DNA of 16,760 nucleotides from Promethearchaeati archaeon (GTDB lineage Archaea > Asgardarchaeota > Heimdallarchaeia > Heimdallarchaeales > Heimdallarchaeaceae): the NCBI GenBank assembly GCA_013166775.1, contig JABLTJ010000056.1, positions 1 to 16,760 on the forward strand, read 5' to 3'. A program made the translations under genes and the position numbers. The notes below the pieces were generated by a model that made no database searches, was not told where the DNA came from, and worked only from the letters and a program-made list of their open reading frames with translations. This document shows, piece after piece, positions 9,825-16,138 of the stretch (position 1 is the stretch's first letter; every line of letters starts with the position of its first letter).

Positions 9825-9906
9825 TATATTGAAAAAGAAAAAAATATCATTATATTTCTAATTTATATTGAAAAAGAAAAAAATATCATTATATTTCTAA
9901 TTTATA
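9825..9906. repeat. Exact 39-bp tandem duplication
   Basis: tatattgaaaaagaaaaaaatatcattatatttctaatt at 9825-9863 and 9864-9902, plus 4 nt. It includes the TrxR stop codon and the T-rich terminator. Confidence 0.95.
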
Positions 9907-11084
9907 ATTTTCAGATAATCACGAATCTTCAAAGCCACCCTAGCTCCCTCACCAACTGCTGAAGCAATTTGTCTTGTCGATTTACTCCTACAATCACCAA
10001 TTGCATATATTCCTTGGATATTTGTCATCATATTTTCATCTGTTTTAATAAATCCATTTTCATCTAAAACCGCAAGATGTTCTACGATTTTAGCATTTGG
10101 TTCAAGCCCTGCAAATATGAACACTCCATCCGGTTTGAGAATAACTTCTCTTTGATTAATTCTATCAAAGCAAACTACTCCCTTTAGTTGTTTTTTCTCC
10201 CCTGTTTGAAATTCCTTAATTTCATAACTTGTCAAAGTTTTTATTTTAGGATTTGCAGATATTTCTTTCTGAATAACCTTAGAAGCTGTTAATTCATCCA
10301 TAATCTCTACAATTATTATTTCTGAAGCAAAACGAGACAAGATAAGGGATTCTTGTAGAGCAGAATTTCCTCCTCCTACAACTAAAACTTTCTTATTTTT
10401 ATAGTATGAACCATCACATATTGCACAAAAATGAATTTTGTACCCAGTTAAATACTCTTCACCTTCAACACTAAGTTTTTTGTATTCGGTTCCAGTAGCT
10501 AAAACTATAATCTTTGCTTTTAAAACATCCCCATGAGAAGTTCTAACAATAAATCCTTTTGCTTCCTTTTCAATTTTAGTAACTAATGTAGCTTTGAGCA
10601 ATTCTACTCCAAACTTCTCAGCTTGTTGAGTAAAAGCTAATGCTAGATTCTCACCAGTTACACCTTTAGGAAAACCAGGATAGTTCTCTATTCTTTCAAT
10701 GTAAAATAATCTTCCTCCTAAAGCACCCTTTTCAATAACAATAGTACTCATACCTTCTCTAGCTGAATAAATGGCACAAGTTAATCCGGAAGGTCCACTT
10801 CCAACAATTAGAACATCATAATTGGTTTTGGAAGGTTTTGATACTAAATCTAATTTCTCAGCAAGCTCAACATTTGTTGGTTCTATAAGATATGTTCCAT
10901 CAGAAAATTCTATAGTTGGAACTTTTCTTTTACCATCATTAATTTTTTCAACTATTTGTGCAGCTTTCTCATCCTCTGCGATATTGATCAATTCATAATC
11001 TATTCGATGTTCAGCGAGAAATAATTTGGATTTCTTACAATCAGAACACCAAGGAGTACCATAAAATCTGATTATTTTCATCAT
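9897..11084 (-). CDS. trxB: Glutaredoxin-like domain fused to thioredoxin reductase (FAD-dependent disulfide reductase)
   Basis: N-terminal WCSDC and VPTI (Grx/NrdH-like). GSGPSG FAD motif, ENYPGFP, CAICDG active site, GGGNSA, and GIYAIGD. Confidence 0.9.
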   Translation of the reverse strand: MMKIIRFYGTPWCSDCKKSKLFLAEHRIDYELINIAEDEKAAQIVEKINDGKRKVPTIEFSDGTYLIEPTNVELAEKLDLVSKPSKTNYDVLIVGSGPSGLTCAIYSAREGMSTIVIEKGALGGRLFYIERIENYPGFPKGVTGENLALAFTQQAEKFGVELLKATLVTKIEKEAKGFIVRTSHGDVLKAKIIVLATGTEYKKLSVEGEEYLTGYKIHFCAICDGSYYKNKKVLVVGGGNSALQESLILSRFASEIIIVEIMDELTASKVIQKEISANPKIKTLTSYEIKEFQTGEKKQLKGVVCFDRINQREVILKPDGVFIFAGLEPNAKIVEHLAVLDENGFIKTDENMMTNIQGIYAIGDCRSKSTRQIASAVGEGARVALKIRDYLKIIN

Positions 11085-11410: not shown

Positions 11411-12814
11411 TTATCTGTAAGCTACTGTTTTTCCACTACTACCGTTACTGATGTGTTTGTAAATAGCTGCTCCGTTACCGTTGGTGTGTCCATTGGCATA
11501 GTTACTGTTTCCATTACCAATGTGTTTGTGTAGATTGACTTCACCAAAGTTACCATTTTTGTGTTTTTCTTCTATAACAGTAACAACACTATTGAATAAC
11601 CAATCTTCGTTAGTTTTCCATTCAGAAGCGTCCCAATCGAAGTTATCGATGTAGAACGGCCACCACATCCCATGCTTCCCAAAGAAGTCCAGGGAGTAGA
11701 TTTTGTGATTCTTGAAAGTACTCCAAATCAAGTAAGATAACTTGGAATCGTAGTATGGAGGAAGTGATAATCTAAGGAAAATACCCCGATCTAAGAGCTC
11801 AAAGCCTGTTTGAAAAGGTGGATTTTCTTCATTCAAAAAGTTGTAGAACTGGTTCTTTTCCTTTTCAGAAGCATCTTCAATAATAAAAGCACGTGTAACA
11901 TGCTCCTCAAAAAGCTTCCTACTAAAATTCCATCTAGGATTAGTTATCAGATAATTCTTGACTACGTTGTAGTATTTTCGACCAAAATCGACTTTGGTGT
12001 TGTGGCCATTGCGGGTATCAAAGAACTCCCCAAGATTGTAGTAGAAGTTCTTCTCAGTGTCTGAAAGACGGATTTTCTTACCTAAGTGTTGGTAATATTC
12101 TCTGTAGTATTCAATAAGATCTGTTTGCTTGGTACGGATACCTATTTGTTTTCCATTTTCAGAGTGACTAGTAAGATCACGTAAGAGTAGGAAATGGAAA
12201 GGCTCGATAGGTTTTTCTCCTTCATCAGTAACAACAACAATTTTGCCGTTTTTAACAGTAACAGCGCTTCTAACTCCGTTAACTAAATCAGAACTCTTTT
12301 GTAAACGTTTTTCCCAGAAGGAAATGATATCAAAAGGTTCAGGTTCAGATGTGTAATTGGGTAAGGGAGCTGGTCGTGAGAAACGATGACCTGTAGCTTT
12401 GAAAATTGTATAGTCGTCACAAAATTCTTCTTCAACGAGATATTCTAAGAACTTATTAAAAGCTCCATTGACGTTTGTAGGTAGATCGAATTGGGCATAA
12501 ATGCCGAATCTTTCGCCGTAAAAACGATTGTATCCGCGTATATAATTGTGTTCAGATATGGCGCTTTGTAAGAGCGTAAACTGGTGGAGTTGGGAAATAT
12601 TGAAAACAACACCATATCTGGCAAGACCTATACGTTCGGGAACGAAAGAGGCAATAGGGTTGCGAAGAATACCTTTAGTTTTTAGTGATTCTACTCGTCG
12701 AATCATGGTTTGTGGAGAAATGTTGAGTTTCTTACCCAACGAAGAATATGGCTCCAGTGGATAATTCTGCAAGACATTCAAGATTTTTCTGTCAAGTATG
12801 TTGAGTTGATCCAT
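11411..12814 (-). CDS. Large Lrp/AsnC-type wHTH transcription regulator (probably tandem HTH-RAM units) with low-complexity tail
   Basis: LDRKILNVLQ...YSSLGKKLNISPQTMIRRVESLKTKGIL is an AsnC-type HTH, followed by RAM-like beta/alpha segments and a second degenerate unit from FHFLLLRDL. ATG 12814 has SD-like gaggt upstream. Confidence 0.8.
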   Translation of the reverse strand: MDQLNILDRKILNVLQNYPLEPYSSLGKKLNISPQTMIRRVESLKTKGILRNPIASFVPERIGLARYGVVFNISQLHQFTLLQSAISEHNYIRGYNRFYGERFGIYAQFDLPTNVNGAFNKFLEYLVEEEFCDDYTIFKATGHRFSRPAPLPNYTSEPEPFDIISFWEKRLQKSSDLVNGVRSAVTVKNGKIVVVTDEGEKPIEPFHFLLLRDLTSHSENGKQIGIRTKQTDLIEYYREYYQHLGKKIRLSDTEKNFYYNLGEFFDTRNGHNTKVDFGRKYYNVVKNYLITNPRWNFSRKLFEEHVTRAFIIEDASEKEKNQFYNFLNEENPPFQTGFELLDRGIFLRLSLPPYYDSKLSYLIWSTFKNHKIYSLDFFGKHGMWWPFYIDNFDWDASEWKTNEDWLFNSVVTVIEEKHKNGNFGEVNLHKHIGNGNSNYANGHTNGNGAAIYKHISNGSSGKTVAYR

Positions 12815-12855
12815 TTTTTTAGACCTCAAATTTTTTCATTTGATTTTTTTCTATT

Positions 12856-12965
12856 TTTGTACGAGAGAAATTAGGAAATCCATAAGAAATAGAGATGAAT
12901 GTACAAAACCTCTGAACGAAACTCTTGTACAAGAGCCTGAAGAGAGAGTTTTGTACAAGATCTCT
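12856..12965. promoter_or_regulatory. Array of TGTACA operator-like boxes upstream of the Lrp-type gene
   Basis: GTAC cores at 12901, 12927 and 12953 (26-bp period), plus a weaker one at 12859. Perfect palindrome ctcttgtacaagag at 12922-12935. Confidence 0.7.
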
Positions 12966-13071
12966 AGTTGAAACACCCAAATGAGACTTAAGCCCCAAAG
13001 GAGTTCACGTTTATAGACCTCTAAATTACTTCGTGTGGTTTGACCCCTTGCTATTAAGCTTATACTAAGCT

Positions 13072-13188
13072 GGTTGATCAGATAACCCCAGTATAAAACC
13101 TATGGAGCGTCGTTGACCCCTATGACGCCCCCAAGGTTTCTTTCACTACGCCGAGGAAAGGGGTGGGGTTTTCTGGCGATTTTTTTTT
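13072..13188 (+). ncRNA. Candidate ~110-nt structured RNA (three-way junction)
   Basis: GC-rich island. Pairings are 13078-13090/13164-13176, 13096-13113/13122-13139 and 13140-13144/13156-13160. T9 runs follow on the + strand. Confidence 0.45.
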
Positions 13189-13204
13189 GTTATCGTGATT
13201 TTTT

Positions 13205-13519
13205 TTATAATGTTCCGTCAGCAAATGAACCACCGATTGGTTCATCTGGATATCCTCCATCAGGACCTCCGCCACTTGCGAAGTTTCCACCGATTGGTTC
13301 ATCTGGATATCCTCCATCAGGACCTCCGCCACTTGCGAAGTTTCCACCGATTGGTTCATCTGGATATCCTCCATCAGGACCTCCGCCACTTGCGAAGTTT
13401 CCACCAATAGGTTCATCAGGATACCCACCATCAGGACCTGCGACTACAATTGCGCTTGCAACTACTGCAAGTAACGATACTAAACAAACGACTCCTAATA
13501 ATTTTGTTTTAGCCTTCAT
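13205..13519 (-). CDS. Small secreted tandem-repeat peptide precursor (104 aa: signal peptide plus 4 GPDGGYPDEPIGG-containing units)
   Basis: Signal peptide MKAKTKLLGVVCLVSLLAVVASAIVVA, then (GPDGGYPDEPIGGNFASGG)x3 and GPDGGYPDEPIGGSFADGTL. SD-like ggtgg 9 nt upstream of ATG 13519. The TATA box at 13582-13575 argues against ATG 13570. Confidence 0.8.
   Translation of the reverse strand: MKAKTKLLGVVCLVSLLAVVASAIVVAGPDGGYPDEPIGGNFASGGGPDGGYPDEPIGGNFASGGGPDGGYPDEPIGGNFASGGGPDGGYPDEPIGGSFADGTL
13230..13438. repeat. 57-bp coding tandem repeat, ~3.7 copies
   Basis: Three identical units (13230-13286, 13287-13343, 13344-13400) and a partial fourth (13401-13438) with 5 substitutions, all synonymous. 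Confidence 0.97.
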
Positions 13520-13554
13520 TTCTATTATCCACCAGCTTTTAATAATAAAGCTCA

Positions 13555-13601
13555 TGTTACAATTTTCCATAGTATATATAAAGCTTTGGAAAATCGTAAC
13601 A
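13555..13601 (-). promoter_or_regulatory. TATA box of the peptide gene enclosed by a 15-bp inverted repeat
   Basis: tgttacaattttcca (13555-13569) and tggaaaatcgtaaca (13587-13601) match 14/15. The 17-bp spacer contains minus-strand TTTATATA. Confidence 0.7.
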
Positions 13602-13933
13602 GCTACCCTCTGAAGTACCCTTAGACTGCCTTACTTGGTTTTCTAATTTAATTTGTGTCGGCAGAGAATTTTACTTAGATATTTACTTAAGTGTAAGGCA
13701 AATCAATTAACAATGTGCTTTCATCGTGTAACATTGCGGTATATATGGCCATAATATTCACTTGTCTTTTTCTTCATTTAAATATAAAAACACCTAATAA
13801 AATCTAAAATTCTTTTGATTAATTTCTTATTACTTTCAGTTAAGTTATTCACTAAATTTCGACAAAATAAGCTAGGTAGTACTCTCATTTGTGTAATCGA
13901 TTGCACATTCGTTTTCATTCTTTATTTTGCGAT

Positions 13934-16138
13934 CTAATGATATTTTTTCGCAACTAATATGACACTTAACAATTCTTCAGTTTTCATTGTAGGTGAATTT
14001 ATTATCCATTCAGGTAAATCTGGAGGATTTGAATCAACCATTTCTTGCCACTGTTCATCTGTCAGTCTATCATTCATTGGGTGTTTGAATTCATAATAAG
14101 AGAAAGTTCCACCCTTTGTTAGTCTCAGATTTCCGTCGTGATCTTGTACAACCACATATATGATAAACGGGTCACCCACTGCAACTTCTAGTATTTGTTC
14201 TGTATTTACATCTGTATATACATCTGCAATTAGAGCTAATCTATTAGCTTCTCCAGTTGATACATCTCCTATCTCGGAATCTAGTATCTCTCCAAAATTC
14301 TCCCCAACGTGACCAATGAAACGTACATCACTCTCATTCAAAGGTATGTTTTCTAATTCTTTTATGGAGATTTCTGTCAATCTATCGAATATACTCTTAC
14401 ATTCTAGTAACTTATCGTTAAAAGTTTCATTAAGTAATCCTCTTGCTGTCAATCCGTCATACATGAGTTTCACTAAACTGCTTAATCTAGAATATACTTC
14501 AGGAATTGGTTCTACATACCCATCCTTTATATGAGGACCTGAATAATAAAACGAATATGCTTGTTTTGCATAAAGAAGTGTGTCATGCCTTAATTCTACC
14601 CATGAACCCAATGTTGTCATGAGAGATTTATCTTCCCAAGCATCATTCAACATGAAACCAGGATATCCCTCAGAAGCATGATTTAGAAGTGGAAAGAGAT
14701 TGTATAACCACATCCAATAGAGGTTTTGAGTCCAATCATAATCAGTCAGGTTTCCAAATTCAGTTCTTAGTTCATGTATTTTTGAGTTATAATCAGTATA
14801 TGTGGTATTTTCTTCTTGTAAATGATAAGCTGCTCTAGAACTTCCAAAAACCGAAAAAACATCTAATGCTTTTGGGAAATTCCTTAAAGTTACTTTATTA
14901 TGTACTAATTGCTGAAAGATGTACGAATCTGGGATAAACCTTTGTCCAAACAATCTGAAGCTTTTAGTTACATCTTCAAATTCAAATTTGTCTAAAATAA
15001 ACATTGAATTGATTCTAGGATCTCTATAGTTCTTAGCATCTTCAATCATTGCTAAGATTAATGTCTCATCACTCAGCTCATCCCCTTGAACAAAACTATG
15101 ATTTTTCCATATCTGAAAATACTCTTTTGGAGTTAAATCATCGCTTTTCCCAACATAAAAGGTAGTAGGCTCGTACATCTTATCCCAAAAATCCCAACAA
15201 GTTTCATCTCCTATCGTGGAATTAAACGAAGAAACAAGTAACATTGCCATTCTTGTTTGTTCTATTCCCATTTCTATTCCCATTTCTATTCCCCCCATTG
15301 GATTCTGCAGATGAAATCCCATTCTTCCTGCATACATCATTGCTTTGAAATATTTCTTTAGAATCTCACTTTTAGTGTAATGTCCTCTGGGTTTGTATTG
15401 ACTATAATCTTCTATATATCCGAATATTGACGATTCAGCTAAAGTGCTGCTGTTTATTTTATCAAGTTCCGAATTCGCTAATTCCGAAACTTCGATAGGA
15501 ATTACATATGAATCATTTAATAGGTACAACATTACTGAGAGATAAGCGATATTTTTCCTTAGAGCATCATAAACAATAGGTTCTGTTACACTTGAATTTA
15601 TATTAAATTGTGAATCTCTTAAAGCACTTAATATTGTGATAAAATCGTTATAAAAATAATCAGCTTCTATTATTCTTAAACTATAATCAAAAAGTGAATG
15701 ATATGTATGTAAACATAAATCACTAGTTACAAAAAACGGATCTTCATTATAGGTATTATAGATTTCAAAGATGTCTGTAAATCCCTCATCTACAATTACA
15801 AATCCGTATTGAGAAATTATTTTTTTCAAATCATTAGAAAGTTCAGTTCCCTGTAAATCTACATTACTCAAATCAGAATTGATTTTTATAGGAATTATAG
15901 ATGGTTGATAATCCAATTGTTCAGGAATATACTCACCAAAACTTGTTTGAACTGATTCATCAATTGAGTAAGCTGCTGCTGTACCCTGGAGTATTCCCAT
16001 CCCTTCATAATTAATTACCCATTCATTATCTAAGGATTCGTTCGGTTTTAAAGGGAGAAATACAACCAAAGTAGAAATTATTATACATATTGAAATCGCT
16101 GAAAAACTATAGATAATCAGTTTTTTTGAGATTTTCAT
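13934..16138 (-). CDS. DUF3160-domain protein, N-terminally membrane anchored
   Basis: DYSQYKPRGHYT, FGQRFIPDS, SWVELRHDTLLYAKQ, GYVEP, SYYEF and RLTDEQW motifs match my recollection of DUF3160. Confidence 0.88.
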   Translation of the reverse strand: MKISKKLIIYSFSAISICIIISTLVVFLPLKPNESLDNEWVINYEGMGILQGTAAAYSIDESVQTSFGEYIPEQLDYQPSIIPIKINSDLSNVDLQGTELSNDLKKIISQYGFVIVDEGFTDIFEIYNTYNEDPFFVTSDLCLHTYHSLFDYSLRIIEADYFYNDFITILSALRDSQFNINSSVTEPIVYDALRKNIAYLSVMLYLLNDSYVIPIEVSELANSELDKINSSTLAESSIFGYIEDYSQYKPRGHYTKSEILKKYFKAMMYAGRMGFHLQNPMGGIEMGIEMGIEQTRMAMLLVSSFNSTIGDETCWDFWDKMYEPTTFYVGKSDDLTPKEYFQIWKNHSFVQGDELSDETLILAMIEDAKNYRDPRINSMFILDKFEFEDVTKSFRLFGQRFIPDSYIFQQLVHNKVTLRNFPKALDVFSVFGSSRAAYHLQEENTTYTDYNSKIHELRTEFGNLTDYDWTQNLYWMWLYNLFPLLNHASEGYPGFMLNDAWEDKSLMTTLGSWVELRHDTLLYAKQAYSFYYSGPHIKDGYVEPIPEVYSRLSSLVKLMYDGLTARGLLNETFNDKLLECKSIFDRLTEISIKELENIPLNESDVRFIGHVGENFGEILDSEIGDVSTGEANRLALIADVYTDVNTEQILEVAVGDPFIIYVVVQDHDGNLRLTKGGTFSYYEFKHPMNDRLTDEQWQEMVDSNPPDLPEWIINSPTMKTEELLSVILVAKKYH
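15260..15293. repeat. 12-bp in-frame tandem repeat (~2.8 copies) in the DUF3160 gene
   Basis: ttctattcccat x2 plus ttctattccc, encoding GIEMGIEMGIE. Confidence 0.9.

Follow-up and report, generated by a model that had tools for sequence, protein, structure and literature searches.

Peptide systems closest to the locus

Fungal Kex2-processed repeat proteins (KEPs), which include yeast alpha-factor and the ustiloxin-type precursors, consist of a signal followed by tandem short cores only, in varying copy number; their repeats are uniform within a protein and diverse between lineages, and many of their genes have no modifying enzyme nearby (PMC7329392). KEPs such as alpha-factor offer the closest known layout to that of the protein described here, which, with a putative signal, resembles them in these respects (PMC7329392). 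Its gene lies in a window of 16,760 nucleotides, i.e. positions 1 to 16,760 of contig JABLTJ010000056.1 (assembly GCA_013166775.1), from a Promethearchaeati archaeon of the family Heimdallarchaeaceae. However, several properties set it apart from KEPs. Dibasic KR sites are missing, the protein of this genome having no basic residue after the signal and those of the related clades B, C and E single K or R residues; the host is an archaeon, with no Golgi or Kex2 context; the repeat unit can be traced to the tail of a folded protein; and a gene for a DNA-binding-type protein is always adjacent.

A further comparison concerns the RRNPP systems of Bacillota and phages (Rap-Phr, PlcR-PapR, NprR-NprX and AimR-AimP), in which the gene of a small Sec-exported pro-peptide adjoins that of a cytoplasmic HTH protein. 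The present locus shows a similar arrangement. In addition, the FDPP motif ancestral to the repeat is found at the C-terminal end, as are the motifs of Phr, PapR and AimP, and several paralogous cassettes occur per genome. In contrast to RRNPP, the regulator has a tandem Lrp/AsnC fold, for which Pfam gives wHTH/AsnC-type families only and no TPR, the peptide gene comes first, the 390-nt spacer between the two genes holds a conserved RNA-like element, and the core is multi-copy. In the full-text literature we found no description of a cassette combining such a peptide with a tandem Lrp gene, and neither peptide-based signalling nor a multi-copy secreted peptide precursor was found described in Asgard archaea.

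Organization of the repeat-peptide gene

The repeat-peptide gene (13,205–13,519, minus strand; 104 codons plus stop) was delimited by translation and by its homologues. Its 104-aa product combines a 27-aa signal-like N-terminus with four 19-aa units, each made of the core GPDGGYPDEPIGG and the spacer NFASGG. Translation thus confirms the four-core mature part, with cores 2–4 each placed after NFASGG, that the initial annotation had read from the letters alone. Tandem Repeats Finder described the array with a period of 57, 3.7 copies, 96% matches and a score of 385. All units lie on the minus strand. Five nucleotide changes separate unit 1 (13,382–13,438; 19 codons) from units 2 and 3, and the earlier statement that all of them are synonymous agrees with our comparison (5/5). 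Units 2 and 3 (13,268–13,381) are identical at the DNA level, and unit 4 (13,208–13,267) matches them over its first 38 nt, diverges thereafter and ends in SFADGTL. A last unit with a divergent tail is present in every family member. Because ~150 nt of the repeat are exactly periodic, the count of four copies, taken as assembled, is only as good as the assembly. The gene itself is present in a single copy in the genome. Two further ORFs run over the array, at 13,113–13,613 (plus strand) and 13,120–13,431 (minus strand); among the ORFs found there only the 104-aa frame is kept in relatives, and the other two are by-products of the repeat.

The 27 signal-like codons (13,439–13,519, minus strand) follow the n/h/c-region pattern, with a basic n-region (MKAKTK), an h-region of ~15 aa and a c-region ending V-V-A, and they align with the signal peptides of the ~152-aa relatives discussed below. 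Together, the h- and c-regions comprise 21 apolar residues in this protein, which contains neither K nor R beyond residue 6. Where the signal-like part meets unit 1, position −1 is A or S and position −3 is V, A, T or L in 21/21 proteins of clades A and D. It had been proposed initially that the signal ends exactly where the first core begins; this is the case in clades A and D, but not in clades B, C and E, where ~25 aa lie in between. Using the family alignment, AF2 modelled a helix at residues 2–26 and returned a pLDDT below 50 for residues 32–104, and the mature part is predicted to be disordered, without a fold.

Searches of Pfam, NCBIfam and the ESM-Atlas features gave no match for the repeat peptide. 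In addition, longer fused homologues were not found in our search, which is a weak negative result. The possibility of an RTX-like Ca2+ beta-roll was ruled out, given the period of 19, the lack of a GGxGxD register and the absence of a fold in AF2. The same applies to an ALIX-type YPx3(L/I) late domain, as its Tyr is not kept in clade D, and the protein is predicted to lie outside the cell.

Family distribution and selection

A word-indexed search of 5.8 billion proteins recovered 14 homologues of 64–116 aa. One of them is named Hodarchaeales by NCBI, which bears out the initial assignment of the DNA to an Asgard archaeon. The closest relative is 83% identical over 98% of the query; it carries four units with many synonymous differences and is found in three independent assemblies. 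A profile search of 83 species genomes of the class Heimdallarchaeia placed the peptide gene in 17/25 species genomes of the same genus (16/24 when only the other species are counted) and in 0/6 genomes of other genera of the family, the remainder of the 83 genomes giving a single weak, stop-containing match only. Several species without a match have a contig that stops within the peptide gene (L009, L015, L019 and L022), and in others (L034 and L036–L038) the contig starts ~450–500 nt upstream of the regulator gene. Assemblies thus break at the repeat, and the true prevalence in the genus is probably higher than 17/25.

Across the family the number of units ranges from 2 to 7, and units are near-identical within a gene and different between species. 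Type A, to which our genome belongs, follows the pattern GPxxGYPDEPIG with G/A/S-rich spacers, and type D the pattern GPV(E/T/Q)DEPIG with spacers ending PGGA. In types B, C and E the ~25-aa stretch after the signal is followed by units such as DPTGGFPDEPIGGLFK or GPDDGQTDTPLQGITDK. The minimal core common to all types is P-x(0-5)-[DT]-[EQT]-P-[ILV]; a conserved core in variable copy number, for which the initial annotation had proposed to test homologues, is indeed present. The peptide types track the phylogeny of the neighbouring regulator.

Pairwise comparison of units within each of 16 genes gave 184 synonymous versus 19 non-synonymous differences over the nine core codons, and 48 versus 16 over spacers of equal length; within-gene pairs are not independent, but the synonymous skew is nevertheless large. 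The selection on the peptide suggested earlier from the five silent changes is thus upheld by the core codons. Locus L003, whose regulator is 97% identical to that of our genome, is informative in this respect. Its four cores are identical as protein and use differing codons for Thr, Gly, Tyr, Glu and Ile, and all four have T where all four cores of our genome have D. This indicates that the copies are not merely recent duplicates, and that each unit is maintained and changes in concert with the others between species. Purifying selection on every unit is solidly supported by these codon comparisons. The peptide family is real, genus-restricted and fast-evolving.

The adjacent tandem Lrp/AsnC-like gene

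A tandem Lrp/AsnC-like gene (11,411–12,814, minus strand; 467 aa from a conserved MDQLN start), recognized by Pfam and PDB matches, lies 390 nt downstream of the peptide gene on the same strand. Pfam reported HTH_24 (2.3e-08) and HTH_AsnC-type (4.2e-08). PDB sequence matches were to Lrp/AsnC proteins, PH0061 (2dbb) and LrpA-type structures aligning over residues 7–133, and the second half of the protein is similar to the corresponding halves of tandem Lrp proteins. The regulator therefore resembles Lrp/AsnC proteins in its AsnC-type wHTH followed by a RAM-like domain, in its second Lrp-like half and in the palindrome at the adjacent promoter. Unlike Lrp/AsnC proteins and the NirDL/AhbAB-like fused forms, it is 467 aa long, includes extensive unique parts and has a conserved tail rich in Asn and Gly. 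Because Lrp-like folds can also be enzymes, as in the case of siroheme decarboxylase, DNA binding by the regulator is a property that we infer. A complex prediction for the double-Lrp protein with peptide residues 28–104 scored 0.01, a result that counts neither for nor against an interaction.

The regulator gene was found directly 3' of the peptide gene in 13/13 loci of other GTDB species with downstream DNA (51–68% identity), and the same order was seen in the remaining contigs read. The peptide gene is strictly linked to the tandem Lrp gene, and we consider this observation solid. The upstream side is different: in our genome the neighbour is a 734-aa DUF3160 gene, and upstream genes vary among the other loci. 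DUF3160 was ruled out as a processing partner, being upstream only in this genome and missing at the locus of the closest relative. The search for conserved neighbours proposed in the initial annotation was thus successful for the downstream tandem Lrp gene but not for the upstream one.

Origin from an FDPP-tail protein

Homologues of the regulator, at 33–46% identity, occur elsewhere in our genome (G000:C47) and in other genera, and each of them is preceded on the same strand by a gene of ~152 aa. The encoded protein starts with a signal peptide, continues with a domain containing a DxDxDGxxDD loop and carries an invariant FDPP and an acidic Pro-rich tail, e.g. GGSGDEPIGGGVSP or GGDPDYPIGGGVDPGP, with the pattern FDPPGG..D(E/Y)P(I/P)GG. 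No Pfam or NCBIfam model matches it. For one 152-aa relative AF2 gave a confident eight-strand beta-sandwich (pLDDT 91.7) in which the tail is modelled within the fold (pLDDT ~92 at residues 141–150), and a fold search returned generic Ig-like, LEA_2, TMEM106B-luminal and CARDB-like matches with E-values of 5e-3 or worse. Of 300 genomes sampled across the phylum, 95 matched a profile of the FDPP family, a single genome giving up to nine matches. Both in further families of the class and in further classes, the FDPP gene is directly followed by a tandem Lrp gene of ~365 aa, and the coordinates of the two genes give at least 20 adjacent pairs. The FDPP-tail beta-sandwich gene and its tandem Lrp gene form a so far undescribed cassette, widespread in the phylum and often present several times per genome.

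The repeat unit aligns with the C-terminal tail of this family, and the F of FDPP has its counterpart in the aromatic residue of the spacer. Furthermore, the ~25-aa remnant of clades B, C and E aligns with part of the beta-sandwich domain, and a reduced, 102-aa form of the FDPP protein is encoded in another genus (L048). Maximum-likelihood analysis united the 19 regulators linked to peptide genes in a single clade (100/100), nested among the FDPP-linked regulators of the same family. We conclude that, in the genus ancestor, one copy of an old cassette lost the fold and multiplied the tail. Sequence comparison solidly supports the repeat unit as an amplified version of the C-terminal FDPPGG..DEP-IGG tail of the ~152-aa secreted beta-sandwich protein, and descent from the FDPP family is supported by genomic position and by the regulator tree. 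Like FDPP genes, the peptide gene lies upstream of an orthologous regulator gene and its signal is homologous in position. Unlike them, it has lost the beta-sandwich, of which ~25 residues are left in clades B, C and E, and carries the tail in 2–7 copies instead of one. With only the signal and the tail motif retained and the fold absent, the peptide gene is a derivative of the FDPP family and not a member of it in the structural sense.

Asp-Pro self-cleavage, which occurs at GDPH or FrpC-type sites, was also considered for the FDPP of the ancestral protein. D-P is found at unit starts in clades B and E, and not in A, C or D.

Promoter and candidate operator

The 5' leader of the peptide gene, which is conserved in 17 species (AGCTGGTGGA), contains the Shine-Dalgarno sequence GGTGGA (13,528–13,533, minus strand). 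A TATA-like box, TTTATATATA (13,573–13,582, minus strand), lies ~50 nt upstream, and an equivalent box is present in other species. It is flanked by the half-sites of a palindrome (13,556–13,600), located at 13,556–13,569 on the minus and 13,587–13,600 on the plus strand. In 17 species the palindrome follows the pattern GTTAC-n-ATTTTCCA ... TGGAAAAT-n-GTAAC, around or beside the TATA box; in our genome and in the closest relative the box sits around the middle of the inverted repeat. No second zero-mismatch copy of the half-site pattern was detected in the 3.85-Mb genome, and one-mismatch matches occur at the level of the control pattern. That the peptide promoter carries a conserved, genome-unique putative operator is solidly supported by these comparisons.

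In several promoters of the paralogous 152-aa genes, TTCCA-N15-17-TGGAA surrounds the TATA box, exactly or one base off. These palindromes suggest that a dedicated repressor from the same protein family would occlude TBP/TFB. The natural candidate for this predicted repressor is the double-Lrp protein encoded next to the peptide gene, and it may regulate that gene; both proposals are drawn from adjacency only. TGTACA boxes are present upstream of the regulator gene itself. The palindrome also provides a specific DNA target on which a fused double-Lrp regulator can be studied.

Processing and alternative explanations

The explanation we lean towards, although we put it at somewhat less than an even chance, is that of a cleaved multi-copy peptide precursor; its gene would be the output component of a two-gene cassette found across Asgard archaea, in a derived form resembling a polyprotein gene. 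The ancestral cassette consists of a gene for a Sec-exported ~152-aa FDPP beta-sandwich protein directly followed by a tandem Lrp/AsnC-type gene. In one Heimdallarchaeial genus the fold was lost and the tail multiplied, giving a signal plus 2–7 identical units of 15–19 aa. The double-Lrp protein would bind the palindrome at or beside the TATA box and gate transcription. The product would be exported, its signal peptide being removed, as sequence rules suggest, at the junction between A or S and x-Pro, and the disordered chain may then be cut in the variable spacers, after K/R in clades B, C and E and after G/A in clades A and D. Several copies of a species-specific, acidic, Pro-rich peptide of ~12–19 residues would be released and could serve as an extracellular ligand or signal.

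Nearly as likely, in our view, is that the protein remains intact, exported or membrane-anchored, and that its 2–7 acidic Pro-rich motifs form a multivalent ligand at or close to the cell surface without any processing; the partner would be one that normally recognizes the FDPP tail, for example paralogous beta-sandwich proteins, S-layer components or Ca2+. In clades B, C and E a K or R is found at 19/19 boundaries (at −1 in 17 and at −2 in 2), with none elsewhere in the repeats and none behind the final unit; K and R replace each other, and the adjacent residues vary. In clades A and D each unit is preceded by A, G or S. These boundary residues, together with a first unit that starts exactly at a −3/−1-rule site in all 21 clade A/D proteins, the predicted disorder of the chain and 13 Peptidase_S8 (subtilase) matches in our genome, count for processing. 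Ordinary cleavable signal peptides in the 152-aa relatives, and copy numbers as low as 2, which would leave little multivalency, also argue against the intact protein. However, the use of K/R in some clades and of G/A in their sisters argues against one dedicated processing enzyme, and no protease or modifying-enzyme gene is conserved beside the peptide gene in the loci compared. In the AF2 model the tail of the 152-aa relative is a structured part of the fold and not obviously a free peptide, and the long apolar stretch of h- and c-regions, with its predicted helix, leaves room for an uncleaved membrane anchor. Per-copy purifying selection, variable copy number and disorder fit multivalent binding equally well.

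As a special case of the cleaved precursor, the units could be imported by Opp-type transporters, bind the double-Lrp protein and change transcription at the palindrome, closing a sensing loop similar to that of RRNPP systems. We consider this unlikely. It would accord with the strict adjacency of an exported-peptide gene and an HTH gene in the genus, with the ancestral form of this pair across the phylum, with the up to 9 FDPP-family matches per genome, with the genome-unique putative operator and with 19 SBP_bac_5 (Opp/Dpp-type) matches in our genome; moreover, Lrp-family proteins are ligand-binding regulators. On the other hand, the receptor fold would be Lrp/AsnC and not TPR, the ligands of Lrp proteins are, to our knowledge, amino acids and other small molecules and not peptides, and the tracking of the regulator tree by the peptide types, which would suit such a loop, is also predicted by vertical descent alone. 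Far less probable still is a strict RiPP precursor, of the lasso or the C39-processed double-glycine kind, with enzymes encoded elsewhere. This idea goes back to the initial annotation, which had noted Gly1 and Asp8/Glu9 in the core and a GG before cores 2–4 at which C39-type cleavage might take place. The 88.7%-complete genome, however, gave no match to Peptidase_C39 (PF03412) or to the lasso B-family (PF13471), and the N-terminus is of the Sec type and not a double-glycine leader. Relatives have GA, TA or K/R in place of the GG, and the acidic spacing at core positions 8/9 fits lasso peptides in the protein of this genome but is not conserved, acidic residues being at positions 4–6 in clade D. 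Nor is an enzyme gene conserved beside the peptide gene. Finally, we give a negligible probability to an ORF arising by chance over a DNA tandem repeat, or to an artefact of assembly. Units 2 and 3 are identical in DNA and repeats do break several assemblies, as described above for L009, L015, L019 and L022, but the frame is kept in ~30 sequences with mostly synonymous unit differences, the promoter, putative operator and Shine-Dalgarno sequence are conserved, and the four-unit gene of the closest relative recurs in three independent assemblies. Apart from the exact copy number in our genome, this reading is effectively refuted already.

The most far-reaching proposal would be an ancient Asgard cassette for peptide communication, present in several copies and built on the Lrp fold, in which the FDPP tail, multiplied in this genus into a chain of identical units, is released outside the cell, taken up through Opp-type transporters and sensed by the double-Lrp protein, which acts at the palindrome to produce species-specific autoinduction; we regard it as a long shot. 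If true, it would provide an archaeal counterpart of RRNPP quorum sensing based on the Lrp fold, with a multi-core precursor of prohormone type in the prokaryotes most closely related to eukaryotes. The locus offers a testable candidate, with a putative product of 12–19 residues, a dedicated regulator gene, a unique putative operator and a traceable origin. Even if the protein acts intact, it would illustrate how a short linear motif from the tail of a folded protein can turn into an amplified, fast-evolving gene of its own.

A conserved intergenic element

The spacer between the two genes contains a GC-rich element (13,004–13,190), a candidate structured RNA. Rfam returned no match for it, and RNAalifold on a MAFFT alignment of the element gave a weak consensus only. 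The element is present in a single copy in our genome and was found at the same place, with long invariant blocks, in at least 16 species.

Conserved intergenic elements of the peptide-regulator locus

The intergenic region separating the repeat-peptide gene from the tandem Lrp/AsnC-like regulator gene contains a GC-rich conserved element (13004-13190), which was found at the same position in at least 16 species and is present in one copy in the organism's own genome. Long invariant blocks run through this element, e.g., GAGGAAAGGGG..TGGGG..TTTCTGGCGA and GGTTTGACCCCTTG (+ strand reading), and its hairpin stems are variable. No match for it was retrieved from Rfam. Since T-runs come after the element on the + strand, it may represent a candidate RNA convergent with the peptide gene. 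Closer to the regulator gene, the cross-species intergenic alignment revealed upstream TGTACA-type boxes (12850-12970; consensus cTTgtaca / TgTAcaa), which are at least partially conserved and are different from the palindromic operator of the peptide gene.

The double-Lrp protein and the FDPP cassette

The double-Lrp protein itself (11411-12814, - strand) carries an insertion of approximately 14 residues (…VTVKNGKIVVVTDEGEKP…) in its linker (approximately residues 183-205), present in the species under study and its closest relative and absent from other species. At the C-terminus, every orthologue of the genus has a conserved Asn/Gly-rich tail that contains Y-L-x-K-H-I-S/A-N-G. An unreduced form of the cassette is also kept in the organism's own genome (G000:C47:47865-49567; L055:1966-4099), where a 152-aa beta-sandwich gene with the FDPP tail is followed by a 407-aa tandem Lrp gene and then by a receiver-domain (Response_reg) gene of 130 aa; in loci L058, L059, and L060, the equivalent cassettes are likewise followed by the receiver gene. 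Across the phylum, up to nine cassette copies are found per genome, and in another class-level lineage (e.g., loci L093, L096, L099, and L100) the sequence of the FDPP tails is GGSGDADPCG(S/A)L(V/E)V, in which the Cys is conserved. No model for the cassette was found in Pfam or NCBIfam, and no literature on it was found.

Genomic context

The gene directly upstream of the peptide gene (13934-16138, - strand) encodes a DUF3160 protein of 734 aa (E 7.5e-180), which begins with a membrane helix and for which NCBIfam has no model; other species show no linkage of this gene to the cassette. In several metagenome-assembled genomes of the genus (L009, L015, L019, L022; L034, L036-L038) the contig ends in the repeat-peptide gene or begins just downstream, and annotation-based surveys will therefore count too few copies of the gene. 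Additionally, the own genome (G000) yielded 19 matches to SBP_bac_5 (Opp/Dpp-type) and 13 to Peptidase_S8, and this gene content suggests a lifestyle with heavy investment in extracellular proteolysis and peptide uptake.

Finally, the window contains a glutaredoxin-fused pyridine-nucleotide disulphide oxidoreductase gene (9897-11084, - strand), whose first codons are overlapped by a perfect tandem duplication of 39 bp (9825-9906; 2.1 copies, 100% match) that extends downstream into the coding sequence. One related contig of the genus has no such gene between its regulator gene and the genes of 188 aa and 120 aa.
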